A stretch of 64,000 nt of DNA from Planctomycetota bacterium (GTDB lineage: Bacteria > Planctomycetota > UBA1135 > GCA-002686595). The notes below the pieces were generated by a model. It was not told the DNA's origin, made no database searches, and was given only the letters and a program-made list of their open reading frames with translations. The DNA lies in contig CANKOY010000017.1 of assembly GCA_947484275.1 (NCBI GenBank), forward strand, positions 1 to 64,000, written 5' to 3'. The translations under genes were made by a program, and so were the position numbers. Positions 3,342 to 64,000 of this stretch are shown in pieces (positions within the stretch are counted from its first letter, which is position 1; the number at the start of each line of letters is the position of its first letter).

Positions 3342-3370
3342 CGCAGTCCTCGCGGTTGTTGCTCAGGAAC

Positions 3371-15411: not shown

Positions 15412-15580
15412 GCTGCCCGCCTTTCGCGGAGCCTTCTCGGGCGTTCGTCCGCTCACTGGATCGCTCCTGCCGCGCGCAGTGTAGACCACGGCGGCCGCCC
15501 AGTTGAGCGCGCCACGGTATGGATTTCGAACAAGCGCAAGGCCCCGGCGACGCGGCCGGCCGGAGGGCGTCGTGGATCGA

Positions 15581-17002: not shown

Positions 17003-17008
17003 GGCCAC

Positions 17009-17064
17009 GACCATAGCGGATGGGTGAAGGAACGGCACAGTTCCTTCACCCATCCGCTATGGTC
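17009..17064. promoter_or_regulatory. Perfect 25 bp inverted repeat with a 5 nt spacer, in the 70 bp divergent intergenic region between the M64 peptidase and epimerase genes. Candidate operator site.
   Basis: gaccatagcggatgggtgaaggaac GGCAC agttccttcacccatccgctatggtc. The two arms are exact reverse complements of each other. The palindrome covers nearly the whole gap between the two start codons. Confidence 0.5.
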
Positions 17065-49059: not shown

Positions 49060-50469
49060 TTAGCGCTGAGACTTGGAAAGGCGCTCGACCTGCTCGAGGT
49101 AGCGCGCAATGTCCTCGCGCGGCTTGAGTTCCTGCGTGCGTCGCAACGGCGCAAGTGCGTCGCTGTACCTGCCCATCCCCACGAGTACCTGCGCTTGACT
49201 GATCAGGGCCTGGGGCGCGTAGGCATCCAGGCTCGCGGCGCGCTCGTAGTAGAAAATCGCGCGGTCCGGTTGGCTGGTCCGCGAGTAGTGCTTGGCCAAG
49301 AGCATCAATGCCTCGCCATCCAGTGGATCGACCTTGACGATCTCCTCGAGCACGCTCGCAGTTTCCTCGTTCTCGCTACCGTCGGCCATGGCAAGTCGCG
49401 CGTCGAGTTTCAGCAACTTCTGGCGCTCGATCGGCTCGATTCGTCCCGCCCAGGAGCTGTTGATGCGCCCCAGAACTTCGCGCGCCAGTTGCGGCGTCCC
49501 GCGCGAGGCGAGAATTTCCGCGGCTCGCATGGGGCGGGAGATGGGTTGATTCACATCGACATCGATCGCGCGCAGGTAAGCCCGGGCGGCGAGGTCCAGC
49601 AGGTTTTCCCCGACGTAAATGTCGGCGAGCGTGTGCGCGCTGTCGACGCTCGCAAGCCCCAGGCGATCGATGGCCTCAAGGTTGACGGCAGCCTTCAGCG
49701 GTTGCTTCAGCCCAAGATAGGCGTGTGCCTGCAACAGCCAGAATTCTGCTTTGTCCGGATAGCGCGCAATCAGGACCTCCAATAGCGAGGCGCAATCCTC
49801 GAACTTGCCCTGCCGAAACACACAGCGCGTGAGCCCCAGACGCCACTCGGTGTTTTCGGGCTGCAGCAACAGCGCATTGCGGTACGCCGCCTCCGCGGGC
49901 TGATAGTCCTGCTTGGACGAATACGCGAATCCGAGGAGCCCATAGGAATAGGCGTCTCCGCCACCAAGCTCGAGCATGCGCACGAACGCGGCAATCGCCG
50001 GATCGTATTTGCCCTGACGCACCTGGATCAGCCCCAAGTTGCGCCAGGCACGGCGAAAGCTCGGGAACTTCTTGATCGCCTTGTCGTAGCTCTCGAGCGC
50101 CGAATCGAAGTTTTCCTGCTGGAAATGAATGCCGGCGAGGGTGAAATCAAGGATCGCCGAGCAATCCGGCTTCATGGCCTTCTTCAGCGCCGCCTCGGCC
50201 TTGGCCAAGTCGTTCGCCGCCATCAATGGACGCACCTTCTCGAGAATCCCAACCTCATCAAGGGTGACGCGCGGCTCGATCTCGGCGTTGACTCCGTAGG
50301 CCGCGACGAACTGACGCTGGAACGTGGGATCGTTCCAGATCGATTCGATAGTTCCTCGGGCGCTCTCCTGGGCGGCCGCGCCAGCTGCCAGGATCAAGCC
50401 CGCCACGCAGGTCCCCAGGATTGTGAAGCTGCGCCGTGCTCGGCGCCCATTGCTCAAGGTTTTCATGTT
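49060..50469 (-). CDS. TPR-repeat periplasmic protein of the TonB system cluster (TtpD-like).
   Basis: Signal peptide (MKTLSNGRRARRSFTILGTCVAGLILAAGAAAQ). Multiple TPR-like repeats. It is the last gene of the minus-strand TonB cluster. Confidence 0.7.
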   Translation of the reverse strand, partial: NMKTLSNGRRARRSFTILGTCVAGLILAAGAAAQESARGTIESIWNDPTFQRQFVAAYGVNAEIEPRVTLDEVGILEKVRPLMAANDLAKAEAALKKAMKPDCSAILDFTLAGIHFQQENFDSALESYDKAIKKFPSFRRAWRNLGLIQVRQGKYDPAIAAFVRMLELGGGDAYSYGLLGFAYSSKQDYQPAEAAYRNALLLQPENTEWRLGLTRCVFRQGKFEDCASLLEVLIARYPDKAEFWLLQAHAYLGLKQPLKAAVNLEAIDRLGLASVDSAHTLADIYVGENLLDLAARAYLRAIDVDVNQPISRPMRAAEILASRGTPQLAREVLGRINSSWAGRIEPIERQKLLKLDARLAMADGSENEETASVLEEIVKVDPLDGEALMLLAKHYSRTSQPDRAIFYYERAASLDAYAPQALISQAQVLVGMGRYSDALAPLRRTQELKPREDIARYLEQVERLSKSQR

Positions 50470-50477
50470 CAAGTTCC

Positions 50478-51185
50478 TCAGTCGGGTTGAAAGCGCATGG
50501 TCAAGCGCATCCTCGCGGGGACACGTTTTCCACCCTGGAGCCGTGGCTCGAAGCGCCACTGGCGAATGGCCTCCAGCGCGGGCCGCTCAAAGGCGGGGTG
50601 CGAGGACTCCGCGACCTTGGGAGTGTTCACGCTGCCGCTCTCGTCGAGATTGAAGATCAGCGTGACTTGTCCGTCGATGTTCTTGCGACGCAGTTCGGCG
50701 GGATACAGCGGCGCCACTTGGAAAATGGCGCGCGCACTTTGATCGAATTCGGACAAACCGAGCGCGGTCTCGATCGGGTCGCCGGGACCGCCAGCCTTGC
50801 CCGTGCCGCCGATGCGTCCGCCTGAGCTGAAACTGAGTGCGGCGCCGAAGTCAGAGCCGCCACCGGTTTGGTTCAGCGCCGCCTCGATCGCGCTCAGGCT
50901 GGCGGCCTCCAGCGCCGGAGCGCTCTCCTCGAGGCTGGGAGCGCTGCTTTGAGCCACGTCGATCGGGTCCGGAGGACTCTCGGTTTCTTGCTCGAGTTCC
51001 TGCTCCTGCGGCACTTCCTCCTGTGGCTCCTCGGGTTTCTGCGCTTCGACTGCGCCGAGCAATTCCACTTCCTGCGTGGTCGCAACGCTGCTCTCGCCCT
51101 GGCCGAACAACAGACCACCGAACAGCAGGATCCCCAAGTGGAGCAGCACTGCCCCCACGATTCCGAGTCCCCAAGCGACCTTCAC
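50478..51185 (-). CDS. tonB: Energy transducer TonB.
   Basis: N-terminal TM. Pro/Glu-rich spacer (EEPQEEVPQEQELEQETESPP). C-terminal TonB domain (NIDGQVTLIFNLDESGSVNTPKV...RMRLTMRF). Overlaps exbD by 4 nt. Confidence 0.85.
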   Translation of the reverse strand: MKVAWGLGIVGAVLLHLGILLFGGLLFGQGESSVATTQEVELLGAVEAQKPEEPQEEVPQEQELEQETESPPDPIDVAQSSAPSLEESAPALEAASLSAIEAALNQTGGGSDFGAALSFSSGGRIGGTGKAGGPGDPIETALGLSEFDQSARAIFQVAPLYPAELRRKNIDGQVTLIFNLDESGSVNTPKVAESSHPAFERPALEAIRQWRFEPRLQGGKRVPARMRLTMRFQPD

Positions 51186-51604
51186 TTGCGCTCCGTGTTG
51201 ATGCCGACCTTGGCGATTCCGATCCGGCGAACTTCGTCGAGGACGGCGACCACGTGCTTGAAGTTGGCGCCGCCATCGCTGTTGATCATCACCTTGGGGT
51301 CCTTCGAAGTCGCCTTGAAGGTCTGCAGCTTGAGGGGCAGTTGGGCCAAGGTGATCTTCTCCTTGTTGAAGAAGACGTCGCCCTTCTCATTCACGCTCAG
51401 CGTGACGGCCTTCTCCATTTCCTGCTGATCGCCGAGCGACGCCGCAGTGGCCGCCGTGGGTAGCGCGACTTGCACGCCCTCGTTCTTGGTCATCGAGAGC
51501 GAGACCATGATGAACGTGGCCAGCAGGAAGAAGATGATGTCGATCAGCGGGATGATCTCGATCCGCGCCCGCTTGCGTGACTGGCTGCTTCTGGAACGTC
51601 GCAT
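51182..51604 (-). CDS. exbD: Biopolymer transport protein ExbD/TolR.
   Basis: 140 aa. IPLIDIIFFLLATFIM is an ExbD N-terminal TM. Periplasmic ExbD domain. Confidence 0.9.
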   Translation of the reverse strand: MRRSRSSQSRKRARIEIIPLIDIIFFLLATFIMVSLSMTKNEGVQVALPTAATAASLGDQQEMEKAVTLSVNEKGDVFFNKEKITLAQLPLKLQTFKATSKDPKVMINSDGGANFKHVVAVLDEVRRIGIAKVGINTERK

Positions 51605-51606
51605 GG

Positions 51607-53028
51607 CTAGGTGGTGGCCTGGGGCGCGATTTCAGCCGCGGCATTCCCGTGGGGATGAACGAGCAACTCGAGCTGCGTGGCAGCGGACTCGATTTCATGG
51701 CCGGCCTCCTCCATCTTCGTATTCAGGAAGTTGAAGGGGATCAGAGCCGTGATCGCGATGCCCAGGCCGAACGCGGTCGCGATCAGCGCTTCGGCAATCC
51801 CGCCGGTGATCGCTCCGGGCGCGCTGAGCTCGCCGCCGATCAAGGCGAAGGAACCCATCATGCCCACCACCGTGCCCAACAGCCCGAGCAACGGTGCCAG
51901 GGTGATCACCGTGTCGAGAATCGGAATTCCGCGCCGGAAGCGCTTGAGCTCCTGAGCCTGGGCGAAGAACAGCGCGTTGGCCAGGGATTGCTCCTGGTGT
52001 CCGAGCGCGTAGCCAAGGGCACGCACGAGGTAGAACTTGCTCTCCCTGCCGATGCGAATCGCGGACTCGATATCGCCTCGGTTGACCGCGGCAAAGAAGC
52101 TCTCCAGTGCCGCTGGATCGCGCTTGATTCGTTCGCGCATCAGGAAGATGACGCGCTCGAGCACCGTGCCCAGGGCGAGGATCGATGCCAATAGCAGCGG
52201 CCACATGATCGGCCCGCCCTTCTCGAAGATGTGGAACAAGTTCGTGCGCTGCACCAGGGCCTTGAGCGCGCCGCCGCGCGACGGATCGAGCGGCATGAAC
52301 CCCTCTCCGCTGTCCACGAGCGACAGCAGCCCTGCCTGCATCTCACCTTCGAGCGGACGAATCAGCGGACGGCTGGAACCGGACTGGGGCACGACGAGGC
52401 CCGCGGCGCCGCCGCCGTCGGAGCGAAAAAGGGCCACCGGACCGAGCAGGGCGAACTGACCGCGGGACACCGCACCCAGCAAGTCGACTCCGACTCCCGG
52501 GAACCGCATGCCGCCGACCGCATCGAACAACCGTTGCAGCGACAGATTGGCCAGCTCGAGCTGGATCGCGAACTTCTGCGGCATGGAAAGCGCGCTGTTC
52601 TCACCGGCCTGCTTGGCCCGGTCGATCGCCTCCTGGCAGTACTGCAATTCGCAGACGTTGATCTTGGACTCGAACGTGCGCGCGTACTCGTCCAGCAGGT
52701 TGCCCACATAGGTGAACTCGTCCTGGCGCGACTTGATCTCCGAGCGCAGTCCGGGAAGATCCAGGTTGCCCTGATCCATCAGGCGCGTGACGCGCTCGTG
52801 CTCGCGGCGCAATCGAGTCAGCTGCTCCTCGGCGACAGTCAGGTCCTGGGCCAGGGGCAGTTTCTCCCCGGCAATTTTCTCGCGCAGTTGATTGAGCTCA
52901 AGAATGCTGATGTCGAGCTGGGCCTTGGCGGACCCCGCGAGCTGATCGATGGTGCCTTCAGCCGAACTTTGGGCAGCGGCGGGCAGTGCGAGCAGCAGAG
53001 CCCAAAGTGTGATCGTCAAGAGTTTCAT
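51607..53028 (-). CDS. MotA/TolQ/ExbB-family proton-channel protein with a approximately 250 aa N-terminal periplasmic extension (TtpC-like).
   Basis: Signal peptide (MKLLTITLWALLLALPAAAQS). Long coiled-coil periplasmic region. C-terminal 3-TM MotA_ExbB domain (LGLLGTVVGMMGSF...GIAEALIATAFGLGIAI). Confidence 0.85.
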   Translation of the reverse strand: MKLLTITLWALLLALPAAAQSSAEGTIDQLAGSAKAQLDISILELNQLREKIAGEKLPLAQDLTVAEEQLTRLRREHERVTRLMDQGNLDLPGLRSEIKSRQDEFTYVGNLLDEYARTFESKINVCELQYCQEAIDRAKQAGENSALSMPQKFAIQLELANLSLQRLFDAVGGMRFPGVGVDLLGAVSRGQFALLGPVALFRSDGGGAAGLVVPQSGSSRPLIRPLEGEMQAGLLSLVDSGEGFMPLDPSRGGALKALVQRTNLFHIFEKGGPIMWPLLLASILALGTVLERVIFLMRERIKRDPAALESFFAAVNRGDIESAIRIGRESKFYLVRALGYALGHQEQSLANALFFAQAQELKRFRRGIPILDTVITLAPLLGLLGTVVGMMGSFALIGGELSAPGAITGGIAEALIATAFGLGIAITALIPFNFLNTKMEEAGHEIESAATQLELLVHPHGNAAAEIAPQATT

Positions 53029-53921
53029 TGGATCCTCACCGGCAACGGCACGAAGGCCGGAGTTTGCTTGCCCTGGAGGATTTCCAGTGCGTTCAAAACG
53101 TCCTTGGCCAGGGCAGCCGAGGGTTTCCACGCCCAGCCATCAGCAGTGGGCGTGCCGACGCCAGCTTCGCCCGAGGCGCTGACGTAGTAGCCCTGGGCCA
53201 GGCCCACGTACAGCGCACGGACTTCCGAAGGCCGCCCATTGGCCAGTTCACGCACTTCGTAGCTGACCGTGATCTCGCCGTTCTGCTTGTTGACCTCATT
53301 GAGGATGCCGAGCACGTTTTGAAAACGCTCCGCAACACTGACCCGCGACTCGGCCGTGTCCGCGGGGACGCGCTGGGTCAAGGGCGAGAGCTTCCCTTGC
53401 ATCGGCTCAGGCAATTGCCGAACCAGGCGCAGGATCCTCGACTCCATCTCGCCCACGGACACGGCGAGATTCGAGCCATCGGCCTTGAGAAGGTCGTTCT
53501 CGGCAACCAACTCCGCGCGCTTCTTGTCCGCCTCGGCCACGCTGGCCTCGGCCTGCTTGATCTTCTCCTCGAGGAGCGCGACCTCGCGCTGGACCAGTTC
53601 CAGTCGGCTGACCAGGATCTCGCGACCCTGCTGCCAGTCATTGCGTTCGTGCGAGATGATCTGCTGGGTTTCAATCCACTTGGTCAGGGTCATGCGCGTT
53701 TCCTCCAGCGAGGGTGCAGATCGCGGATCGTCGCCGCTCACCGCTGACTCGCCAGGCGCCCCAATCCCCGGCGTGGGCCCGGCGAAGCTGCCGATCGAAA
53801 CGACCGAGCAGGCGGCGGCTCCGGTGAGGAACCGGCGCAATCCCCCTCGCGGGCGCGCTGCCTTGGCGCGGCGCGGCGGGCGTTCTTGGGGTGAACAGGA
53901 GTTCGTCATTTGCTTATTCAT
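53025..53921 (-). CDS. DUF3450-family periplasmic protein (TtpB-like) of the TonB2-type cluster.
   Basis: Coiled-coil-rich secreted protein of about 300 aa, positioned directly upstream of the long ExbB-like gene as in Vibrio ttpB-ttpC. There is an ATGA overlap with the next gene. Confidence 0.55.
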   Translation of the reverse strand: MNKQMTNSCSPQERPPRRAKAARPRGGLRRFLTGAAACSVVSIGSFAGPTPGIGAPGESAVSGDDPRSAPSLEETRMTLTKWIETQQIISHERNDWQQGREILVSRLELVQREVALLEEKIKQAEASVAEADKKRAELVAENDLLKADGSNLAVSVGEMESRILRLVRQLPEPMQGKLSPLTQRVPADTAESRVSVAERFQNVLGILNEVNKQNGEITVSYEVRELANGRPSEVRALYVGLAQGYYVSASGEAGVGTPTADGWAWKPSAALAKDVLNALEILQGKQTPAFVPLPVRIQ

Positions 53922-53974
53922 GCGTCAGTTCGCTGGTTCGTTTGCGATGTGTGGATCGGTGCAATGTCGATGAT

Positions 53975-56900
53975 TCAAAGTGCGATGGTCGCGGTGAGGC
54001 TCAGCGAGTATTCGATTCCCCTGGAGTAGGAGCTCTTTTCCACGTCTCCGCCGATGTAGGGCGAGCGATAGACCTCCTCGATCGAAGGGTCGGTGAGGTT
54101 CTTGGCCTGGAACTGCAGCTTGAAGTACTTGCCAAGACGCTGTGAGACGCTCAGGTTCAGAGTGTCGTACCCAAGCGCGTAGGCGTTCGGCACGAAGTTG
54201 CCCAGGGCCTGCCCCGCGCCGGCCACCAGCGTGTCGCCTTGGATGGTGTAGAACAGCGCAATCTGCGTGTCAGTCTTCGCTATGTCGTAGGTGACGAAGA
54301 AGTTGCAGAGGTACTCAGGCGCGTTGGTCATGTCGCGCGAGCGCATCGGCGCCTGGATTCCCGGCAAATTGAAAGCGGCGGCTTCCGCGGCCGGCAGGAT
54401 CACTTCAGATTCGATGAGCGTGCCGTTGGCGCCGACCGTCAAGCCAGCGAAGGAATCCGAGAGTACGCCGATGTCCTGGCGGAGTTCCAATTCGAAGCCA
54501 GTGAGCTCGCCCTTGGGATAGTTGATCGGCGTGGTGTATGTGAAGCCGGCAAGTCGCTGCACGTACTCGATCGGATCGCGAATGTCCTTCTTGAACCAGG
54601 AGCACGATACGAGCCCGCCTTCATAGGGCACGTAGTCCGCGCGCAAGTCGTAGTTGTCGAGCGCGCTCATTTCCAGCGTCGGCTCGCCGATGAAGATCGG
54701 GCCGCCCGCGTATTCCTGCTGCAGGATTGGCGTGAGTTCCTTGAACGTCTGGCGCGCGACGGTCTGACTGAAGGAGCTGCGCAGGGTCCAACGCTCCGCT
54801 GGTTCGTAAACCACACCGATCGACGGCAGCAGGTCGTCCTGTCGGAAGGAAACGTCGCCATCGCCCTGCTGCATGGACACCGGGGCCGTGGCGCCGGGCG
54901 GAATCCAGGTCGCGCTGGATTCCGGATCGTTGGCGATGTCGAGCCTCGTGGATTCGGCGCGCGCGCCTCCGATGACGCTCCAGCGCTTCGAAAGCGGCAT
55001 GTCGACCATGGCATAGAGCGCCTTGATGTCCTGCGTGGCCCGATAGTCGACGTCGAACAGTGACTCGGTAATCGGATGGCTCTCGGCCGGAAAGCTCGCG
55101 CTCCAGAACTCGTCGAACTCCCCTACGAAAAACGCGCCTGCGTCGCCGAAGTTGCTGAATGTGTCCTGATCGAACCCACGTTTCACTGAGTCGTCGAACA
55201 GGCCGACCTTCACGTAGCCGGAGTCTGCGGTCCATTGCTCGAACGGGAAATTGAGATTGATCGAGTACTGGTCGCTCTCCTCGTTCACCGACTTCCATAT
55301 CCGCTGAAAGTTCCCCAGGTTGAAATTTGCAGCCGGGAAGTACGGAAACCACGTAGCCGGCGTCGTGGAGGGCGGCGTGAATGGCGGCACGCCCGGATCA
55401 AAAGACGTGGCGTGGAAGAGTGCGCCGAACACCCGCTTGTCGGGCTGATACATGTCGGCCGTCGAATGGGACGCGGTCCAGCTCAGCTCCGGCGCCTTGA
55501 ACCGAAAGCTGGATCCGACGACATAGTCCTCGACGTCGAGGCTGTGCCTGCCCCCCAGCTGCAGCGTGCTCGTCGAGCGTTCGGTGTACTCGAGGGTTTC
55601 GAGGCGCAGGTGCGGCGCCGCATCGAGTTGATTGGGTTGGTTGCCGTTCCCGGTCGGGTTGTTTGGGTCGTAGCCAGGGAAAAAATATTCCTTGCCGCGG
55701 GTGTCTTGCGCGAGCGTCGCTGTGTCGCGCGCGTTGCGTGTGTACAGGTAGGACAGCCCGAGGAAGTTGCGCTCGGTCTCGATGCCGAGGCTGGCGAGAC
55801 CGCCCCAGGTCACTGACTGTGAACCTTGGACCACGTCGAAGAGCGAGGTCTTGAAGTTGCCATCGCCCGGCGTGCCCTGGTTCGTCTGCGGCACCATTCC
55901 CGCGCCCGGCGTCTCGACCCAGAGCGAATCGTCGCGACCGTCGTCGTGGAAGGAGCTCGAGCGCTCATAGAACAGGCTGGCGATGCCGCCGACCCTCACG
56001 CCGTTGTCGAAGGTACGTGCGTTGCCGGCTGTGAAGGACCATTTGTGGTCTGTGGGAGCTGTCCCTTCTGAAACTCCCGCCGCACCGTCCCAGTTCGAAC
56101 CCAGGTTCTGGAGCTGCTTGTCCCGACCGCCATCGTCGAGACCGAAGAAACTCAGGCCGCCGCCGCGGTACGTCAGGAAATCGTCGCGACCGGTGAGCCC
56201 GGGGCTGTAGGTGTACTGGGTCTTCAGCTGGAAAATCGGCTCGTCCGGCAGGCCCTTCAGGATCACGTTCACTGCGCCGCCTGAGGCATCGCCCTGCTGA
56301 TCTGGCGTGAAGGTCTTGCTGACCTGAATGCTGCTGATTACGGCGGTCGGGAACTGGTCGAGCTCCACGGCGCGCTTGTCCTCGTCCGCCGAGGGCAGGC
56401 GCACGCCGTTCATCTGGGAGTTGACATAGCGATCCGGCAGTCCGCGGATCACTGCATACTTCCCGCCTTGCACCGAAGCTCCCGCCACGAGCTTCAGGGC
56501 GGTGGCCGCGTCCCCGGCCCCCGCGCGACTCATCAGCTCCGATCCGATGGAGTCCATGAGCGCCGGGCTTTCGAAGCGCATGCGCAGGAGCGCAGCCTCG
56601 GAGCCCGCGTCGGGCTGCAGCAGATCGCGGACGATGTACTCGTCGAGTTCGGTGAACTCACCGTTCAGTTCGACGTCTACGTCGGCCAGTTGCCCAGCCG
56701 TGACCAGCACGTCCGCGCGCACCTGGCGGTAGTAGCCCTCCTTGATGAAGATCAGGGTGTAACGGCCCGCGGGAATCTGCGGGAAGACGAAGTTGCCCTC
56801 GCCTGTGCTCAGCGCCACCTGGCCGGTCTCGACGATCGTGATGCTCGCGCCAGCGAGAGGCACGTCGAAGTCCTTGTCGCGCACCAGGCCCCGGATCGAG

Positions 56901-56983
56901 CCCGAATCCTGCTGCGCAGACGCCATGACACTGAGAGAGACCATTGCTCCGAGGGTCAGCCAGCGGGATGAACTTCCTTTCAC
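53975..56983 (-). CDS. TonB-dependent outer-membrane receptor with an N-terminal carboxypeptidase-regulatory-like domain.
   Basis: 1002 aa. Signal peptide. CarbopepD_reg-like start (SGSIRGLVRDKDFDVPLAGASITIVETGQ). Plug domain and a 22-strand barrel-sized C-terminal region rich in aromatic/Gly beta-strand signatures. Confidence 0.9.
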   Translation of the reverse strand: MKGSSSRWLTLGAMVSLSVMASAQQDSGSIRGLVRDKDFDVPLAGASITIVETGQVALSTGEGNFVFPQIPAGRYTLIFIKEGYYRQVRADVLVTAGQLADVDVELNGEFTELDEYIVRDLLQPDAGSEAALLRMRFESPALMDSIGSELMSRAGAGDAATALKLVAGASVQGGKYAVIRGLPDRYVNSQMNGVRLPSADEDKRAVELDQFPTAVISSIQVSKTFTPDQQGDASGGAVNVILKGLPDEPIFQLKTQYTYSPGLTGRDDFLTYRGGGLSFFGLDDGGRDKQLQNLGSNWDGAAGVSEGTAPTDHKWSFTAGNARTFDNGVRVGGIASLFYERSSSFHDDGRDDSLWVETPGAGMVPQTNQGTPGDGNFKTSLFDVVQGSQSVTWGGLASLGIETERNFLGLSYLYTRNARDTATLAQDTRGKEYFFPGYDPNNPTGNGNQPNQLDAAPHLRLETLEYTERSTSTLQLGGRHSLDVEDYVVGSSFRFKAPELSWTASHSTADMYQPDKRVFGALFHATSFDPGVPPFTPPSTTPATWFPYFPAANFNLGNFQRIWKSVNEESDQYSINLNFPFEQWTADSGYVKVGLFDDSVKRGFDQDTFSNFGDAGAFFVGEFDEFWSASFPAESHPITESLFDVDYRATQDIKALYAMVDMPLSKRWSVIGGARAESTRLDIANDPESSATWIPPGATAPVSMQQGDGDVSFRQDDLLPSIGVVYEPAERWTLRSSFSQTVARQTFKELTPILQQEYAGGPIFIGEPTLEMSALDNYDLRADYVPYEGGLVSCSWFKKDIRDPIEYVQRLAGFTYTTPINYPKGELTGFELELRQDIGVLSDSFAGLTVGANGTLIESEVILPAAEAAAFNLPGIQAPMRSRDMTNAPEYLCNFFVTYDIAKTDTQIALFYTIQGDTLVAGAGQALGNFVPNAYALGYDTLNLSVSQRLGKYFKLQFQAKNLTDPSIEEVYRSPYIGGDVEKSSYSRGIEYSLSLTATIAL

Positions 56984-57113: not shown

Positions 57114-58421
57114 TCACCAGGGATTCCCCAGTCCGTCGCAGACTTGAACCAGGCGCGCCCGAAGCGCTTCGTCGGGCTCCACGTTGCAGCGGGCCATCGA
57201 GCAGCAGATCGCCGCCAGGTCCTCGGCCCGCGGACGTGAGTTTGGATTCGTGAGCGACTCCTCGAGCGCCGTGCGGTAGTGCCTCAGCGCTTCGCTCTCG
57301 TGGCCAGCCAGGTGGAATGCCTCGGCCAAGGCCAAGACCACATCGCATCGATCTATGTCATTGATCTCACCGCGCCGAGTGGCGTAGGCGGCAACCTCGC
57401 GATCCAACAATTCCCGCGCGCGCACCGGGTCCCCAGCAGCGTGGCGCAGGCCAGCGAGTTTCGCGCCCATGGCGATGCCATCTTGCGCCGTCCAGGCGCC
57501 CTGATCGGCCAGACCCTCGGCCTCCGCCACAAGCTCGAGCGTCTTCACGAAGTCCTGTCGATCCGCGGCACGGCGAGCCATGTCCGCAAGGCCTTCGATC
57601 CGCACGAACAGTGGCACGCGCGTCCAACCCGCGCGCATCGTGACGCCGAGCTTCGCCGCGCGCTCGGGATCGTCGCGCAATCGATCGAACAACTCGGCGC
57701 AGATCGCCAGGGCGCTACGGGCCTGATCGAAACTGCCGTTGGCGAAGAGCTGCTCCACCAGGAGGATGTGAGAGTCCAATTCAGCTCCACTGGCAGCGCC
57801 GGCGCGCGCGGCAAGCAGTACGCCGACCTCCGCCTCGCCCAGTCCCTGCCCGTGGCGCGCCGCCTGCTCCGGCTCGCCGAGCAAAGTGTAGGCACCAGCG
57901 ATGCGCGCCAGAATGCGCTCCTTTTGCCAGGTCTGGGAGCCCGTGTCCTCCTCGGTCACGGCTCCCAGGGGAACGAGCAGATCGACGACCAGACCCAGAT
58001 AGTGCCGCGCCTTTTCGCGCTCGCCGCGCTGTGCTAGCCGGTATGCGTAGTTCGCAGTTGCCAGTCCGCGGCGCCACCCTTCCATCTTTTCGATGCAGCG
58101 CACGGCCAGCAGGTCTTCGTTCAAGGCGATGCACGTCGAGACCACACTCTCCTGGATCCGAGCGCGATTCCTTGCGTGGGGAACCGTCGGGAAGGCACTG
58201 GCCGCCGTGAAGGCGACGTCAAGAAGGAAGGCATGGGACACCGACCGGGGCCGGGCCTGAGTCGAAGGCGTGGATCGGGCCAGCGCCGATTCTGGTTTTG
58301 CAGCAGATGCATCGGAGTCGCAGGCGCAAGCGAGCGCGATCGATGCCACAAGTGCGAGGCATCGAAGCGCTGCGGCGTGGTGGCTCAGCGAAGATGCGGT
58401 GGAAGTGTGCTGGATCATCAT
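57114..58421 (-). CDS. Hypothetical alpha-helical (TPR-like) lipoprotein.
   Basis: Possible lipobox (LACACDS). Helical repeat-like content. No recognisable domain. Confidence 0.35.
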   Translation of the reverse strand: MMIQHTSTASSLSHHAAALRCLALVASIALACACDSDASAAKPESALARSTPSTQARPRSVSHAFLLDVAFTAASAFPTVPHARNRARIQESVVSTCIALNEDLLAVRCIEKMEGWRRGLATANYAYRLAQRGEREKARHYLGLVVDLLVPLGAVTEEDTGSQTWQKERILARIAGAYTLLGEPEQAARHGQGLGEAEVGVLLAARAGAASGAELDSHILLVEQLFANGSFDQARSALAICAELFDRLRDDPERAAKLGVTMRAGWTRVPLFVRIEGLADMARRAADRQDFVKTLELVAEAEGLADQGAWTAQDGIAMGAKLAGLRHAAGDPVRARELLDREVAAYATRRGEINDIDRCDVVLALAEAFHLAGHESEALRHYRTALEESLTNPNSRPRAEDLAAICCSMARCNVEPDEALRARLVQVCDGLGNPW

Positions 58422-58875: not shown

Positions 58876-59733
58876 ATGATGCCTTCTCATTTGCGTGCCC
58901 ACGCGCTACTCGCGCTAACCCTGGTGGCTGCCCTTTCCTCAGGCTGCACAGGACCGAGCATCGACCTCAAGCCGTGGCGGACCGAGCAACTCGCCGCAAT
59001 TCCCGCGCCAATTACGGCCGCGATTCCAATGGAAGCGCGCGCCCCGGGTGCGCTCGCGGCGAGGTTGTCGCACATCGAGCAGCTGCGCACGCAGCGGCAA
59101 GTGGAGCAGGCTAGACAGCTTGCACTGACCTTGGTTTCCGAGCACTCCAACGATCCTGCGGTGTTCACGGCCGCCTCGCGCGCGGAATCGGACGCCGTGT
59201 TCATGTTCCCCGAGAGCGACAAGCTCTCGCGCAATCACGCTGCGGCCAGTTCTCTCGACTACGCGCTCGCGGCGCAACGCCTCGGCGCGAGCACGGCCCG
59301 TGATCGCGCGCAACTGGCGTGGGCCCTGGGCACGACCACCCATCTGCAGCCAATGTTCGATCGCGCGGGGCACGCACAGCGCACGCTGGAGGCTGCCGAG
59401 GCGGCCCTGGCGCAGGATCCGCGCGAGGCAACGGCGCTCGCAACCCTGGCCGTGGTGAACCTGCGACTGCAGACGCTGCCGTGGATCGCGAAACTGATGG
59501 CCTGGAGCGCGCCCGACTCCAGTCTGGCCGATGCCGAACGCTTCGCGCGCAGCGCACAGGAAGCCGCGCCCAGTCGCGAGCATCGACAGATCCTGGCCAA
59601 GGTGCTGATCGCCCAGGACAGGCACGAAGAAGCGCGGGCGGAACTCGATGCCGCGCTCGCCGCGCCGGAGTCAAGTCCGCGCGACGCGCTGCTGGAACCC
59701 GCATTGCGCGCGCTGCGACAGTCGCTGGACTGA
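58876..59733 (+). CDS. Hypothetical lipoprotein (alpha-helical/TPR-like).
   Basis: Lipoprotein signal MMPSHLRAHALLALTLVAALSSGC. Ala-rich helical content. Confidence 0.45.
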   Translation: MMPSHLRAHALLALTLVAALSSGCTGPSIDLKPWRTEQLAAIPAPITAAIPMEARAPGALAARLSHIEQLRTQRQVEQARQLALTLVSEHSNDPAVFTAASRAESDAVFMFPESDKLSRNHAAASSLDYALAAQRLGASTARDRAQLAWALGTTTHLQPMFDRAGHAQRTLEAAEAALAQDPREATALATLAVVNLRLQTLPWIAKLMAWSAPDSSLADAERFARSAQEAAPSREHRQILAKVLIAQDRHEEARAELDAALAAPESSPRDALLEPALRALRQSLD

Positions 59734-59858: not shown

Positions 59859-61589
59859 TCAGCCGACTTCGCGCGCGCGCGAGGTGTGCAGCGACTCCAG
59901 CTCACCGCGCAAATAGCATTCGCGAAAGTGCCGATGGCGGCGCTTGCCGCTGGAGGTCTTCGCAAGCACTCCCTTGCGCACGAGCAACAGCACCTCGACG
60001 ACCACGCCGACTTCCACAGCCAGCTTGCGCCTGATTTCCTTGTCGAGTTCGGGCAGGCGAGTTTCGGCTTCCGGCTCTACCTCACTGACCACGACCAACA
60101 CTTCTGTGCCACGTTCAGTGTCTTCCACACCGAATGCCGTGAAGCAGCCTTTGCGCAGTCCGGGCAATTCGAACAGCGCGTGCTCGAGTTCGCTCGGCCC
60201 GAGCTTCTTGCCTTGGAGATTGATGCGCTCGCTCCGGCGTCCGGTCCAGAAAAACTCACCGTCGCGCAGGTAGCCCTCGTCGCCGGGAAACACCAAGTCG
60301 CCGCGGCGCGTGCGCGCGGTCTCTTCGGGATCGCCGAGGTAGCGTTCGAAGTGCGCCTCGCCGCGCAGTCCAAGTTCACCGACCACTCCATCGGGCAGGC
60401 GTTCGCCCTCGGCGTCGAAAATGCCTAGTTCCAGACCCGGATGTGGGCGCCCGCAGCTGACGAACCACTGGCTCGTGCGCGTCGACCTGTTTGCGACGCG
60501 CGCGATGCCATCCTGCCGCAGCACGTCAAGGTCCACTTGCTCGGCCAGCAGCGGAGCAGTGGGAGCGGTGAAGGTCGCGCCGCCGATGAGCTCCACACAA
60601 CCGAAGTCCGCCTTGCAGGCGTTCCAACGCGCGCCGTGGCGCTCGAAGCGCGCGTGAAAGCGTCTGAAGGTCTCAAAGTGCACGCGCTCAGCTGCGTTCC
60701 AGAAACCGCGCACACGGGAGAGATCCAGGCCCTCGAGTTCCTCGTCGGAGCAGCGCTGCGTGGCGAGGGCGTAGCCGAAATTCGGCGACCACGTTTGGGT
60801 CGCGCCCGCTTCGTCGAGCGCCCGCAGCCAGCGCGCCGGTTGGCGCACGACATCCAAGGGTGAAAGCAGCGCGAGCGGAATCCCGAGCACGAGGCAGGTC
60901 AGCAAGTTGTTGACCAGCCCCATGTCGTGATAGAGCGGCGTCCAATTCACGTAGACATCGTCGGCGGCGAGTCCCATGGCGCTCGCCATGCCGTCGATGG
61001 CAGCGAGTACGCGCCCATGCTCCCAGACCGCAATGCGCGGAAAGCGCGTGGTGCCCGAGGTCTGCTGTAGTGCGGCGATCGAACCCGCGCGCTCTGCTCG
61101 CGCCGGATCCACAGCCGCTGCATTCCAGGGTCCGCTCTCTTCGAGCAACCTCTCGAATCCAGGTTCGATGTGCGCGGCCGGATGTAGCGCGCCGAATGTC
61201 GCGGCCTCGGCCGCCATTGCGCGCGGCAGGATCACGATGCGTGCTTTTGCGCGGCGCACGACGTCGTGCAGGATCTGCGTCAGATTCGAGTTCATGCCCT
61301 GAATCGAAGGCGGTGCCGCCAGCAGCGGTACCGCGCCCGCCAGCAAAACCCCGTGGAGCGCGGTCGCGCACTCCTTGGGATCGACCGACACGATGACCAC
61401 GACCTGCCCCGGAGCGAGGCCGCGATCCACAAGTTGCGCGGCGACCCGAGCAGCTCGCAGGTGCAGGTCGCCGCGAGTCCACCACACAAGTCGTCCGCCT
61501 GCGCCGGGGAACGCCAGCGCCCGATGTTCCGGTTGGGCTTCGAGTCGCGCGCGGATGCGACGCTGCAGGGAATCGGCTGCGAGGGTCAC
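59859..61589 (-). CDS. Fatty-acyl-AMP ligase (FAAL)/acyl-CoA synthetase-like adenylating enzyme.
   Basis: QQTSGTTRFPRIAV is the A3 motif with the Lys replaced by Arg. TPLYHDMGLV is a FAAL-type A5-like motif. 576 aa. The start overlaps the ACP gene stop (ATGA). Confidence 0.85.
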   Translation of the reverse strand: MTLAADSLQRRIRARLEAQPEHRALAFPGAGGRLVWWTRGDLHLRAARVAAQLVDRGLAPGQVVVIVSVDPKECATALHGVLLAGAVPLLAAPPSIQGMNSNLTQILHDVVRRAKARIVILPRAMAAEAATFGALHPAAHIEPGFERLLEESGPWNAAAVDPARAERAGSIAALQQTSGTTRFPRIAVWEHGRVLAAIDGMASAMGLAADDVYVNWTPLYHDMGLVNNLLTCLVLGIPLALLSPLDVVRQPARWLRALDEAGATQTWSPNFGYALATQRCSDEELEGLDLSRVRGFWNAAERVHFETFRRFHARFERHGARWNACKADFGCVELIGGATFTAPTAPLLAEQVDLDVLRQDGIARVANRSTRTSQWFVSCGRPHPGLELGIFDAEGERLPDGVVGELGLRGEAHFERYLGDPEETARTRRGDLVFPGDEGYLRDGEFFWTGRRSERINLQGKKLGPSELEHALFELPGLRKGCFTAFGVEDTERGTEVLVVVSEVEPEAETRLPELDKEIRRKLAVEVGVVVEVLLLVRKGVLAKTSSGKRRHRHFRECYLRGELESLHTSRAREVG

Positions 61590-61843
61590 TTTGCTTGCTT
61601 GCCTTGAATTGTGCGCGAGATGTGCTCGATCGAGTCCAAGTAGTCCGCGCTCATTTCGAAGGCCTCGAAACTGATACCGAACTCGCGCTCCAGATCGGAG
61701 ATCATGGTCAACATGCGGATGGAATCCAGAACGCCGCCAGTCAGCAGTGGAGTCGAGTTCTCCAGAGCCGCGTGTGCAGTCCCCTTCAGCACGCCTCTCA
61801 GCAGCACCTGCCGCACCGTGAGCGCGATCTGGGAGAGATCCAT
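61586..61843 (-). CDS. Acyl carrier protein (phosphopantetheine-binding).
   Basis: 85 aa four-helix carrier protein with a GGVLDSIRML Ser attachment motif (DSx). Translationally coupled to the downstream ligase. Confidence 0.75.
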   Translation of the reverse strand: MDLSQIALTVRQVLLRGVLKGTAHAALENSTPLLTGGVLDSIRMLTMISDLEREFGISFEAFEMSADYLDSIEHISRTIQGKQAK

Positions 61844-62166
61844 GCTTTGAATCGCCGTGCGGGAGTGAGGTCAGAGTGTCGAGTGCAGACTGCGCTGCGC
61901 CAACGATATCAGAAACGGAATCGGATTCGCGCTGATGCGATAGGGCGCGCTGACAGGAGCAGCGGGGAGTAGCTGATGCCGGCGAGTTCGCGAGGCCGCT
62001 GGCTCGCGCACGCGCGGGCGGCCCATGGAGTCAGCTCGCCGACTGCAGGCCAGGCACGGCGCGCAGCCACTGGCGCGTGAGATGCCGGACGTAACTTGGC
62101 TATTCACGCCGCCTGTGTGAATTGCGCACTGTCCGCAGCGCCGACACCCCGGCGGAAGCCCTGCAA

Positions 62167-64000
62167 ATGACGGCTGATATACTTGCGACCATGAGCTGGC
62201 AGTTGCTTTCCGCGGATCTATCGCCCGCGGCTCTGGAGCATGCTCAACCACGGCGAGCACACTTGGGTGCATTCGTCCGGAATGGGGCTCAACTTGGGCT
62301 CTTGCTGGTCGCAATCGCCGGGCTCGAGATCGAGTCTGGGTTCGACCTGCCTACCATCTTGCCGGTGATTGGCCTGGGCTACTGCGCCCACGCGTGGCTG
62401 CCGGCTGCATGGAAGTTGCCGTTTTTCCTGCTGCTTTCGTGCCTCGGCTTTTCCCTGGTCCTCGGAGTGCAGGCCTGCGCCACGGTCTTCGCGCTTGGAC
62501 TCGCGCTGATCGGTGTCTGCCATCTGCCCCTGCGACTGGGCTGGCGCATTGCACTGCTGCTTGGAATTGGAATCGGGCTGACGCTGCTGCGCGGCGGCGC
62601 ACTTGCGCTCCCGTGGAGTCCGGCGGTACTGCCGATGCTCGGTTCGATGTTCCTGTTTCGGCTCGCGATCTACCTCTACGACGAGCACACGGGTCGCCGG
62701 CCTGCGTCGATTTGGATGCGGCTTTCCTACTTCTGCCTGCTGCCCAACGTGTGCTTCCTGCTGTTCCCGGTGATCGACTATCGGACCTATCAGCGCACGT
62801 ACTACGAGCAACCGGCCGCCGCGATCCATGCGCGGGGCCTGCGCTGGATCTTGCGCGGCGTTCTACACCTGCTCGCCTACCGAATCGTCGTCAATTACTG
62901 GAGCCTTGATTCATCCGGTGTGGTGGATCTCGCGGGGGTGATGCGCTTTGTCAGTTCGAGTTTCCTGCTCTACCTGCGCATCTCCGGCCACTTCCACTTG
63001 ATCATCGGATTCCTGCACTTGTTTGGATTCCACCTGCCGGAGACGAATCACCTCTACTGGCTGGCGACGAGTTTCAGCGACTGCTGGCGGCGCACGAACA
63101 TCTACTGGACCAACTTCATGAAGAAGCTGGTCTACTTCCCGGTGTTCATGCGCCTGCGCAAACAGGGGAACACGTTTGCCCTGGTCATCGCGACGTTGCT
63201 CGTATTCGTCGCAACCTGGCTGTTGCACGCACTGCAGTGGTTCTGGCTGCAAGGTGAGCTGCCCGTGACCACGGATGGACTCTTCTGGGGCCTAGCGGGC
63301 GGCTTCGCCCTGGCAAGCGTCCTGCGCGAGGCGCGCCGGGGCGATTCCTCCGCCCTGCAGCCCCCTGTCAACAGCTGGCGGCTGAGCGCGCGAGCTGTGC
63401 TGAAGGCGGCTATGGTGTTCATTCCCTGCGCAGTGACCTGGTCCTTCTGGTCCAGTCCATCAACCTCGGATTGGCTCGATGTACTTTCGATGTCGCGCAA
63501 CACGACGCCGATCCAAGTTGCCTCGATTGGCGGTGCAGTGGCAGCGATCTTCCTTCTCACAACGGTCGCCTCGCGTTTTCTGCTCGAGCCGAGTGCTGCG
63601 GTTGACGCCGTGCCCGGGCCAAGGGGCGCAGCATTGCAGTGGGTCGCCTGCGGATCCCTGGCGCTGCTCGGCCTGGATTCACTCTCGGCGCGAGTTGCGC
63701 CGTCCGTGCAGAGTTTTCTTGCGCCCCTGATCGCTGAACGCACGCGGACCGATCCCGACGGGAACGGGCTCTCCTACTACGACAACCTGCTGGACGATCA
63801 GCGTCATCGGCAGTGGGAGTGGGGTGAGCAAAATGAAGAAACGCGCGAGACACGGCCCTTTGTGAAGGCCGGGCTGGTGAAGGTCGGGCCGCCGCCATTC
63901 GTTCGGGAGTTTCTGCCACTCCAACGGGCTCGGTATGCCAACTCTGTCCTGGAGACGAACAGCTTTGGTATGCGAGACCGGGAATACGCGCTCGAGAAGC
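62167..64000 (+). CDS. MBOAT-family membrane-bound O-acyltransferase (DltB/AlgI-like). It is 3'-truncated by the window end, and the ORF continues beyond the TM region into a soluble domain.
   Basis: Multi-TM protein. DCWRRTNIYWTNFMKKLVYFPV matches the MBOAT WRRW(H)ISL...YVYIP region. The conserved His region is HFHLIIGFLHLFGFHLPETNH. There is no stop before position 64000. Confidence 0.8.
   Translation, partial: MTADILATMSWQLLSADLSPAALEHAQPRRAHLGAFVRNGAQLGLLLVAIAGLEIESGFDLPTILPVIGLGYCAHAWLPAAWKLPFFLLLSCLGFSLVLGVQACATVFALGLALIGVCHLPLRLGWRIALLLGIGIGLTLLRGGALALPWSPAVLPMLGSMFLFRLAIYLYDEHTGRRPASIWMRLSYFCLLPNVCFLLFPVIDYRTYQRTYYEQPAAAIHARGLRWILRGVLHLLAYRIVVNYWSLDSSGVVDLAGVMRFVSSSFLLYLRISGHFHLIIGFLHLFGFHLPETNHLYWLATSFSDCWRRTNIYWTNFMKKLVYFPVFMRLRKQGNTFALVIATLLVFVATWLLHALQWFWLQGELPVTTDGLFWGLAGGFALASVLREARRGDSSALQPPVNSWRLSARAVLKAAMVFIPCAVTWSFWSSPSTSDWLDVLSMSRNTTPIQVASIGGAVAAIFLLTTVASRFLLEPSAAVDAVPGPRGAALQWVACGSLALLGLDSLSARVAPSVQSFLAPLIAERTRTDPDGNGLSYYDNLLDDQRHRQWEWGEQNEETRETRPFVKAGLVKVGPPPFVREFLPLQRARYANSVLETNSFGMRDREYALEK

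Follow-up and report, generated by a model that had tools for sequence, protein, structure and literature searches.

A planctomycete contig (Planctomycetota bacterium; GenBank assembly GCA_947484275.1, contig CANKOY010000017.1) carries three adjacent genes at the end of its first 64,000 nucleotides, the stretch analysed here and called the window. They encode a fatty-acyl-AMP ligase (FAAL)-type enzyme, a stand-alone carrier protein, and a large membrane protein read in the opposite direction. We put the probability at about two in three that these genes form one carrier-dependent cassette for acyl transfer across the membrane, similar in its working to the Dlt (D-alanylation) machinery. The original prediction, made from the sequence alone, had seen in the ligase, carrier and MBOAT-type membrane protein the logic of DltA, DltC and DltB. 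That parallel is borne out by the DltB-like fold of the membrane protein, by the SGNH domain fused to it, by the resemblance of the carrier to peptidyl carrier proteins (PCPs) and DltC, and by the linkage of carrier and ligase genes to the membrane-protein gene in 36 of 41 loci.

To our knowledge, carrier-protein-driven trans-membrane acylation is known from essentially one system, Dlt of Gram-positive bacteria. The cassette seems to be a relative of that D-alanylation machinery which is widespread and has escaped description. The full-text literature, with subscription-only papers outside its scope, yielded no description of a family combining an MBOAT-SGNH protein with carrier and ligase.

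Components of the cassette

The open reading frame (ORF) for the membrane protein runs off the end of the window and terminates 713 nt beyond it. Its missing end was recovered from the parent metagenomic contig (L001; 67,343 bp), identified through an exact match to the ligase, which adds 3.35 kb past the window. The full 817-residue protein (P0001) is 100% identical to the window ORF across their overlap. A continuation into a soluble C-terminal domain had been foreseen. The recovered sequence encodes an SGNH-fold domain of the DltD type, residues 583-817, with the α/β/α architecture of that fold; it lies entirely past the window end, at L001 positions 2636-3344 (would-be window positions 64009-64713). 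The separate DltD-like or SGNH-like partner that had been suggested for the neighbourhood is therefore found fused within the membrane-protein ORF itself.

An AlphaFold2 model of the membrane protein, built with 118 homologues, reached a pLDDT of 91.3 and a pTM of 0.89. Compared with the PDB by Foldseek, the model matched DltB best (8jem_A, 1.7e-7; 6bug_C), followed by HHAT, PORCN and DGAT1. On this predicted structure the MBOAT fold is established and DltB is its nearest known counterpart, in agreement both with the early description of the protein as DltB-like and with the label "DltB (MBOAT superfamily)" that JGI attaches to many homologues. Across the 118 sequences the invariant residues are H245, W275, N279 (117/118), Y281, W282, H322 (118/118) and Q325. 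N279 and H322 are 43 residues apart, lie in the motifs W-R-R-x-N and W-L-L-H, and resemble the residue pairs of MBOAT enzymes, in which an Asn, Asp or His precedes the catalytic His by 35-47 residues; these pairs are His289/His336 in DltB, N378/H415 in DGAT1, D339/H379 in HHAT, and N301/H336 in PORCN (PMC11035591). The putative pair in the membrane protein, Asn279/His322, differs from that of DltB in having Asn at the position equivalent to His289. In DltB, the carrier DltC docks on a horizontal cytoplasmic helix; a basic helix here, residues 280-302, could fill that role. (Canonical AlgI, PatA or DltB was considered as the identity of this protein and rejected: it is a fusion without an HMM match, and its neighbours include no genes of the alginate, Pat or Dlt systems.)

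Three extra hydrophobic helices follow the MBOAT core. The loops they delimit have family-wide charges of +4.7, -0.9 and +2.4, then 0 and -1.8, a pattern that would place everything beyond about residue 470, linker and SGNH domain alike, outside the cytoplasmic membrane. Linker residues 491-530 are modelled at pLDDT values of 59, 63, 48 and 44, as against more than 90 elsewhere. Within this segment Y505 and Y506 are invariant in all 118 homologues, as part of the motif G-Y-Y-E/D-x-L. In DltX and PatA, a C-terminal FxYxxF motif serves as an acyl-Tyr shuttle (PMC12148441); the Tyr-Tyr linker is a candidate internal counterpart of it. In the SGNH domain, the nucleophile is Ser in 104 of the 118 homologues and Cys in the other 14, which make up the window protein's own clade; the block V Asp and His are kept in 103.

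The ligase had been described as a FadD32-type FAAL with the A3 lysine replaced by Arg. The family assignment stands; the FadD32 identity does not, and the Arg is no anomaly. The protein matches the AMP-binding model PF00501 (1.3e-40, 139.9 bits) and has the core motifs of the ANL superfamily: A3, TSGTTRFPR (61035-61061); NWTPLYHDMGLVNN (60906-60947); GDEGY; and A10, TSSGKRRH (59934-59957), with the A10 lysine intact. It also has, at about 60435-60548, the FAAL-specific insertion, a segment that separates the N-terminal from the C-terminal domain and keeps FAALs from ligating CoA. This region aligns gap-free to the insertion of the E. coli FAAL 3pbk, whereas McyG shows a 20-residue gap there, and it amounts to about 24 residues relative to five adenylation-domain (A-domain) ligases that occupy the same slot in sister loci. 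All of the top NCBIfam matches are FAAL subfamilies (PRK09192, PRK05850, MbtM, FadD32, FadD21, FadD28), and the curated cutoff of none is reached: PRK09192 scores 266 bits against 600, and the FadD32 equivalog 169 against 975. The nearest solved relatives are 3pbk (4e-44), McyG, FadD23, FadD32, the Legionella FAAL 3kxw, and FadD28; DltA (3e7w) matches weakly, in the C-terminal part. By these sequence comparisons the ligase is a FAAL-family enzyme, neither FadD32 itself nor a member of a curated FAAL subfamily. Arg is indeed present in A3, in the normal FAAL pattern: 3pbk has TSGSTRFPR, and orthologues of the window ligase have Arg or Lys at this position.

An acyl-CoA synthetase of beta-oxidation is ruled out as the identity of the ligase. 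Because the enzyme has the FAAL insertion, the family's behaviour predicts loading onto a carrier instead of CoA. A fatty-acyl cargo is no more than a candidate, since members of this FAAL subfamily turn up in unrelated settings as well.

The carrier has the predicted 85 residues and attachment-site serine (LDSI, Ser41). D40 and S41 do not vary among 22 aligned orthologues, and the family conforms to the four-helix carrier fold with a (D)S attachment motif. The single sequence scores marginally against the Pfam PP-binding model (19.3 bits; gathering score, 20.8). A profile of the family finds type II PCPs best (2my5 at 9e-16, PltL, PigG), then DltC (6bug_A, 3e-9); fatty-acid-synthase acyl carrier proteins (ACPs) come far behind, at about 4e-4. 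Against the NCBIfam DltC model the window carrier reaches 18.7 bits, below the cutoff of 68. The profile comparisons indicate that it is related to DltC, not orthologous to it.

The closest curated family is NCBIfam NF052616, ACP_for_OlsHI. OlsH and OlsI form a planctomycete ornithine-lipid pathway, and NF052616 describes its associated carrier (PMC12493201). The cutoff of this model is 130 bits; the window carrier reaches 66.9. All 22 orthologues match the model and all stay below 130 bits: relatives score 92-129, and the A-domain-linked carriers 108-129 (for example, L059:12420-12662 and L067:5258-5506). Clustering of the flanks turned up no GH3-like OlsH and no α/β-hydrolase OlsI neighbour. 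Membership of the OlsHI ornithine-lipid carrier family was rejected on these two grounds, and on sequence the carriers are a close sister of the model's family. Automatic annotation could easily misname some of the A-domain-linked carriers "ornithine lipid biosynthesis ACP" despite their setting in an MBOAT-SGNH cassette.

Linkage across genomes and the window's clade

When one genome of each GTDB species was scanned for the membrane protein, at least 587 loci came to light. Hosts among the loci listed include Planctomycetota, Rhodothermales, Gemmatimonadota, Acidobacteriota, Beta- and Gammaproteobacteria, Chloroflexota, Methylomirabilota, Calditrichota and others; the closest of those listed are Planctomycetota metagenome-assembled genomes (MAGs), at 67% identity. 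An exhaustive profile search for the family gave 1,762 representatives of 50%-identity clusters at E<=1e-30. From the 587 or more loci, 80 were analysed by searching six-frame ORFs with the window carrier, the window ligase and an A-domain ligase. Linkage was counted in the 41 of them that had 3 kb or more of flank on both sides. Carrier and ligase accompany the membrane gene in 36 of them (88%), the carrier alone in two, and neither in three; the proposed survey of co-occurrence thus upholds the triad from the membrane-protein side. In most of the 36 the carrier gene and then the ligase gene follow the MBOAT-SGNH gene directly and on its own strand, tens of bases apart. The membrane gene occurs in two or three tandem copies in 10 of the 80 loci.

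Flank clustering showed no widely conserved neighbour beyond the triad and no conserved small ORF. A pathway for the acceptor, sought among conserved neighbours, yielded merely scattered polysaccharide-type genes in 3-7 loci each: glycosyltransferase, UDP-glucose dehydrogenase, carbamoyltransferase, asparagine-synthase-like and sulfatase genes.

Two types of ligase fill the ligase slot of the 36 linked loci: A-domain enzymes in 30, and orthologues of the window FAAL (41-75% identity) in six. The A-domain ligase (about 515 aa; L031:12745-14313 and others) passes the amino acid adenylation model TIGR01733, at 354-408 bits against a cutoff of 317; DltA is the runner-up model, at 287 and below its cutoff of 560. 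It carries the FDLS motif, which binds the α-amino group. The passing score and this motif in the majority ligase indicate that the family was ancestrally aminoacyl and Dlt-like. The nearest solved relatives of the A-domain ligase are LgrA module 2, at 452 bits, and PltF, a prolyl-PCP ligase, at 382, with DltA at about 200-228. The main family probably carries an aminoacyl group other than D-alanine.

FAAL orthologues occupy the same slot in L007, L025, L047 and L064, and in the metagenomic loci L086, L095, L117 and L128. The Ser-type, A-domain-linked form is found in cultured bacteria too, among them Methylomonas subterranea SURF-2 (L021) and Rhodocaloribacter litoris (P0032). In a neighbour-joining tree of the membrane proteins, which is rough and carries no support values, the clade of the window protein is FAAL-linked wherever the flank permits scoring (L025, L007, L005, L009, P0001, L004), and four further FAAL-linked loci are dispersed among A-domain lineages. 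On this distribution, several exchanges of the ligase seem to have taken place in the slot.

The window FAAL's subfamily was also followed from the ligase side, in 80 metagenomic loci (42-62% identity). Eight contain an unfused version of the cassette: an operon of a PF03062-recognised MBOAT (2e-17), a carrier, one or two SGNH-like proteins, and the FAAL. Their 338-residue proteins have an SGNH-like block V, DGEHLNHEG, and no Pfam match. These loci offer independent support for a carrier-fed MBOAT system. In about 17 other loci the FAAL is accompanied by a carrier, a PaaK-like ligase and an Rv2949c-like chorismate pyruvate-lyase (2e-18), and in many of these by a 3-deoxy-D-arabino-heptulosonate 7-phosphate (DAHP) synthase as well. 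(Glycosyltransferase genes and a sulfotransferase-like gene lie close by, and these loci may represent a pathway to a p-hydroxybenzoate-derived product.) Still others adjoin condensation domains of nonribosomal peptide synthetases (NRPSs), glycosyltransferases or halogenases. Such mixed contexts point to a general loader of stand-alone carriers. Judged from gene content, the pairing of FAAL with MBOAT is recurrent, in two architectures, and not exclusive.

The window's own clade comprises 14 of the 118 homologues; members with a source name come from Planctomycetota MAGs. In block I all 14 have G-[STA]-Cys-x-E-[ML]-G, where the remaining 104 have G-x-Ser. The block V D-x-H is lost, replaced by LGHVPT in the window protein and by SRRYPN and LQYQPT in others. 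His661, in an [ST]-[NS]-His motif beside block III, is present in 14 of 14 members and is accompanied by a fixed two-residue deletion; the site is unconserved in the Ser-type proteins. The Tyr-Tyr motif of the clade reads Y-Y-D, not Y-Y-E. From the alignment, the SGNH site gives the impression of having been rebuilt around Cys and His, not of having decayed: because Cys592, His661 and the deletion are coordinated across all 14 members, selection on an altered active site is the likelier history.

Carrier and FAAL genes lie within 8.5 kb of the membrane gene in seven of the eight Cys-type sub-clade loci with enough flank (that of L006 is too short to score). In the window and in its closest relative, L003, they diverge directly from the membrane gene. 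Five others (L004, L005, L009, L163 and L165) have the same divergent ends with a conserved seven-gene block of about 8 kb in between. The block encodes a B12-binding radical SAM protein, a sulfotransferase, a nucleotidyltransferase (NTP_transf_3), a class I glutamine amidotransferase (GATase)/C26 protein, a PPDK_N/PEP-utiliser phosphotransferase, an adenosine 5'-phosphosulfate (APS) kinase, and a methyltransferase, with 48-65% identity between loci. The gene content of these ten-gene clusters suggests sulfation chemistry dependent on 3'-phosphoadenosine 5'-phosphosulfate (PAPS). A tblastn search across the 64-kb window and the 3.3 kb that follow found none of the seven block genes, and no remnant, so the window locus is a minimal triad. 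Since the rough tree places the window amid block-bearing lineages, the simpler reading is, tentatively, that the block was lost. The basal FAAL-linked loci L007 and L025 have a co-directional order, a Ser nucleophile and no seven-gene block.

Relation to known systems, mechanism and rival readings

Although the three genes resemble Dlt in plan, they are not a Dlt operon. In Dlt, the MBOAT (DltB) and SGNH (DltD) proteins are separate; here they form one polypeptide. Dlt has the DltX microprotein; here there is no dltX gene, and the internal invariant Tyr-Tyr linker is a candidate substitute. In place of DltA there is a FAAL, and the A domain of the relatives is nearer LgrA module 2 and PltF. 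Dlt belongs to Firmicutes, whereas the hosts here are mostly diderm and without teichoic acids. The window proteins reach none of the Dlt cutoffs in NCBIfam, and membership of Dlt fails for every component.

MBOAT/SGNH pathways other than Dlt lack a carrier, use acyl-CoA, keep the two proteins separate and place FxYxxF at the MBOAT C-terminus (PMC12148441). The O-acetylation systems PatA/PatB, AlgI/AlgJ/AlgX and WssH/WssI, which draw on acetyl-CoA and have no carrier and no fusion, differ accordingly from the system described here, which has a dedicated ligase and carrier, a fusion, and an internal G-Y-Y-E/D-x-L linker. Nor are there alginate, cellulose or Pat neighbours at the window locus. 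Neither of the two identities that would have undone the prediction was found: the ligase is no beta-oxidation enzyme, and the MBOAT is no AlgI in an alginate cluster (no AlgI HMM match; neighbours of the TPR and TonB types). The fused bifunctional acyltransferases treated in a 2025 mechanistic synthesis are the AT3-SGNH class (PMC12148441). OatA-type members join a membrane acyl-translocating domain and an extracytoplasmic SGNH domain in a single polypeptide that works through a Tyr intermediate (PMC12148441), and by analogy the same could hold for the MBOAT-SGNH protein; they differ in having an AT3 domain, an acetyl-CoA donor, and neither ligase nor carrier.

The ligase shares with characterised FAALs (3pbk; Legionella 3kxw; FadD23, FadD28 and FadD32) the ANL motifs, TSG(S/T)TRFPR, YHDMGL, the FAAL insertion, and a carrier partner. 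What sets it apart is the partner, a PCP/DltC-like carrier that would supply an MBOAT instead of a polyketide synthase, an NRPS or Pks13. A Dlt-like ligase and carrier that modify a Gram-negative envelope molecule also occur in AlmEFG of Vibrio cholerae, in which a glycine ligase, a carrier and an acyltransferase modify lipid A. AlmG, however, is an LpxM-type acyltransferase of the cytoplasmic face, with no MBOAT-SGNH protein and no trans-membrane shuttle.

From the observed gene anatomy, folds, conserved residues and linkage we infer a chemical route, with its cargo, acceptor and topology, that would run as follows. The ligase, to judge from its family, would adenylate a carboxylic acid, most likely a non-amino acid such as a fatty acid, and load it onto the phosphopantetheine arm of the co-translated carrier rather than onto CoA. 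Fold and conservation suggest that the acyl-carrier would then bind the MBOAT domain at its basic cytoplasmic helix, and that the Asn279/His322 site of this domain would pass the acyl group through the membrane to Y505 or Y506 of the linker. The linker would act as an internal equivalent of the C-terminal FxYxxF shuttle of DltX and PatA. Finally, the fused SGNH domain would take the acyl group on Cys592 (Ser in most of the family) and hand it to an acceptor in the envelope.

Several observations count against such a machine. In the window, the carrier-ligase pair and the membrane gene are divergently transcribed and form no operon. One member of the window's clade, L164, has neither carrier nor ligase within 10 kb. 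Linkage is weaker from the ligase side, a fused MBOAT-SGNH gene lying nearby in just about 11 of the 80 FAAL-subfamily loci; on these contexts the FAAL is not dedicated to the MBOAT-SGNH system, and its cargo need not be a fatty acid. The MBOAT models PF03062 and PF13813 match neither the window fragment nor the full protein, even at E=10; NCBIfam gives no MBOAT or AlgI match; PF03062 matches 0 of 36 homologues; and a 36-sequence family profile retrieves from the PDB sequences weak SGNH matches only, with no MBOAT. The HMM checks that had been proposed therefore succeeded for the ligase (PF00501, 1.3e-40), were marginal for the carrier (19.3 against 20.8) and failed for PF03062; with HMM recognition failing at every level, it was the fold that settled the MBOAT assignment. 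Identity to DltB is just 10-12%. The Tyr-Tyr motif resembles FxYxxF loosely, agreeing at the Tyr and the final hydrophobic residue only. The SGNH triad of the window protein is non-canonical, with Cys592 for Ser and LGHVPT without the block V Asp, and PF13472 gives the domain 14.7 against a cutoff of 32.9.

Divergent transcription and the many contexts of the FAAL subfamily would also be expected if the genes were coincidental neighbours, the FAAL and carrier feeding a separate lipid or natural-product pathway (an OlsHI-like aminolipid, for instance) and the MBOAT-SGNH protein working independently, perhaps with acyl-CoA in the manner of PatA and AlgI. The carrier's top curated match, an ornithine-lipid-associated ACP model, agrees with this, as do L164 and the well-flanked Ser-type loci L022, L061 and L069, in which the membrane gene lacks carrier and ligase. 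Yet 88% of the well-flanked loci have an orthologous carrier beside the membrane gene, with either type of ligase; the carrier-FAAL pair is kept within 8.5 kb in seven of eight sub-clade loci; the carrier falls well below the ACP_for_OlsHI cutoff (66.9 against 130), with no OlsH- or OlsI-like gene in the flanks; and the window has no second ligase or carrier close to the membrane gene. Coincidence is very improbable on this record. Somewhat less remote, though still improbable, is direct acylation of a membrane lipid or lipid-linked intermediate by the MBOAT domain, in the manner of LPCAT or DGAT, with the SGNH domain, robbed of esterase-type catalysis in the window's clade, as a binding or scaffold module. 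Against it stand the coordinated changes of the SGNH domain (Cys592 in 14 of 14 members, His661 in 14 of 14 and a fixed two-residue deletion), which look like selection for a changed site and not like decay; the clade also keeps the Tyr-Tyr linker, and DltB is a better match than the lipid MBOATs.

A further alternative leaves the machine in place and changes what it carries: a non-fatty acid (aryl, hydroxy, branched or otherwise modified) would decorate the envelope. The roughly 17 metagenomic loci that pair the FAAL subfamily with chorismate pyruvate-lyase, PaaK-like ligase, ACP and DAHP synthase favour it, for the arrangement recalls the mycobacterial p-hydroxybenzoate route, in which p-hydroxybenzoic acid is loaded by FadD22, a FAAL-family enzyme. 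In the five clade relatives, the radical SAM protein, methyltransferase, sulfotransferase, APS kinase and PEP-utilising phosphotransferase of the block could likewise tailor a carrier-bound acid. Set against this, the nearest solved or curated relatives are long-chain FAALs (3pbk, FadD23, FadD32, PRK09192), and the window holds no tailoring or chorismate genes. We consider a non-fatty cargo unlikely, though the machine itself would accommodate it. The carrier-dependent, Dlt-like cassette remains the preferred reading of the three genes.

A broader synthesis is possible, and is offered tentatively, at something short of even odds. The whole family, at least 587 loci and about 1,760 clusters, would be an unrecognised, self-contained machine for trans-envelope acylation. 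It would fuse the roles of DltB, DltX and DltD as MBOAT domain, Tyr-Tyr swinging arm and SGNH domain, and be served by a PCP-like carrier with an interchangeable A-domain or FAAL loader. The window's lineage would have switched to a lipid-like or other non-amino cargo and a Cys-His SGNH site, and the product would be a new extracytoplasmic lipidation of a component of the diderm envelope.

If this is true, the Dlt principle extends to diderms (Planctomycetota, Gemmatimonadota, Rhodothermales, Acidobacteriota, Betaproteobacteria and others), to DltB and DltD in one polypeptide, to a swappable aminoacyl or FAAL-loaded cargo, and to SGNH domains with a Cys nucleophile. The cassette also offers a compact three-gene unit for testing acyl handover from thioester to Tyr to Ser or Cys to acceptor. 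It points to aminoacyl or acyl decorations of Gram-negative envelopes, with possible effects on charge and permeability and on how well cells withstand phage or antimicrobial peptides.

Layout of the locus and other genes in the window

ORF listing and direct translation confirm the three genes at the positions and on the strands first assigned to them (Table 1). The TGA stop of the carrier gene overlaps the GTG start of the ligase gene in the 4-nt sequence GTGA (61586-61589), not ATGA, so the translational coupling claimed for this pair is real. The divergent region, put at about 320 bp, measures 323 bp when the membrane gene begins at ATG 62167; a scan of it gave no σ70-like promoter, terminator, Rfam match or notable repeat. 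Candidate starts for the membrane ORF are ATG 62167, ATG 62191 and TTG 62263, the gene caller's choice. The protein has 849 residues from ATG 62167 or 817 from TTG 62263, and the 849-residue form better matches the N-terminal length of its homologues. The codon for Cys592 falls at would-be window position 64036-64038.

Table 1. Positions of the cassette's features in the window, and of related loci in other contigs (handle, with coordinates where given).
Feature	Position or loci	Strand	Remarks
FAAL-type acyl-AMP ligase	59859..61589	-	576 aa, GTG start; from ORF listing and translation
Stand-alone carrier protein	61586..61843	-	85 aa; Ser41 (LDSI) at 61721-61723
Divergent spacer, carrier gene to membrane-protein gene	61844..62166		323 bp with ATG 62167
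Fused MBOAT (DltB-like)-linker-SGNH protein	62167..64000	+	first 611 codons within the window
Putative MBOAT active-site region	63085..63228	+	W275-R-R-x-N279-I-Y-W282 at 63085-63108; H322 at 63226-63228
Basic helix 280-302, likely carrier docking site	63100-63168	+	family-wide net charge +3.7
Flexible, predicted extracytoplasmic linker, residues 491-535	63733..63867	+	Tyr505-Tyr506 at 63775-63780
Ten-gene clusters with the seven-gene block	L163:36-12556, L165:1-12487, L004:3-12490, L005:2-12466, L009:2-12442		
Unfused MBOAT, carrier, SGNH-like and FAAL loci	L096, L109, L111, L122 (3379-7606), L125, L126 (2252-5721), L131, L149		
Chorismate-lyase loci	L135:9604-12352, L119:9965-13880, L097, L103, L113, L116, L120, L132, others		

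The host had been taken for Gram-negative, and its genes agree. The window encodes TamA (Omp85 with POTRA, 693 aa) and TamB (1389 aa) at 9242-15489 on the minus strand, and, at 49060-56983, a TPR protein, TonB_C, ExbD, ExbB/MotA, DUF3450 and a 1002-residue TonB-dependent receptor with an N-terminal CarboxypepD_reg domain. With TamA/TamB and a TonB/ExbBD/receptor set present, an outer-membrane-bearing diderm is confirmed. The TonB cluster lies about 3 kb from the ligase gene, with genes for two TPR-like proteins in between: 57114-58421 on the minus strand and 58876-59733 on the plus strand.

Three other genes complete the picture of the surroundings. On the far side of the cassette, 620 bp 3' of the MBOAT-SGNH gene, a partial ORF (L001 3-2357, minus strand; called at 671 aa, with a longest ORF of 785 aa) has no informative domain, DUF1565 matching weakly (E=0.07), and is unconserved in relatives. 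A peptidase M64 (IgA-peptidase-like) gene adjoins tamB (15581-17053, minus strand; 2e-108). Near the start of the window, an 888-residue protein (675-3341, minus strand) joins a large N-terminal region without a domain match to a C-terminal sigma54-interaction AAA+ domain and lid.

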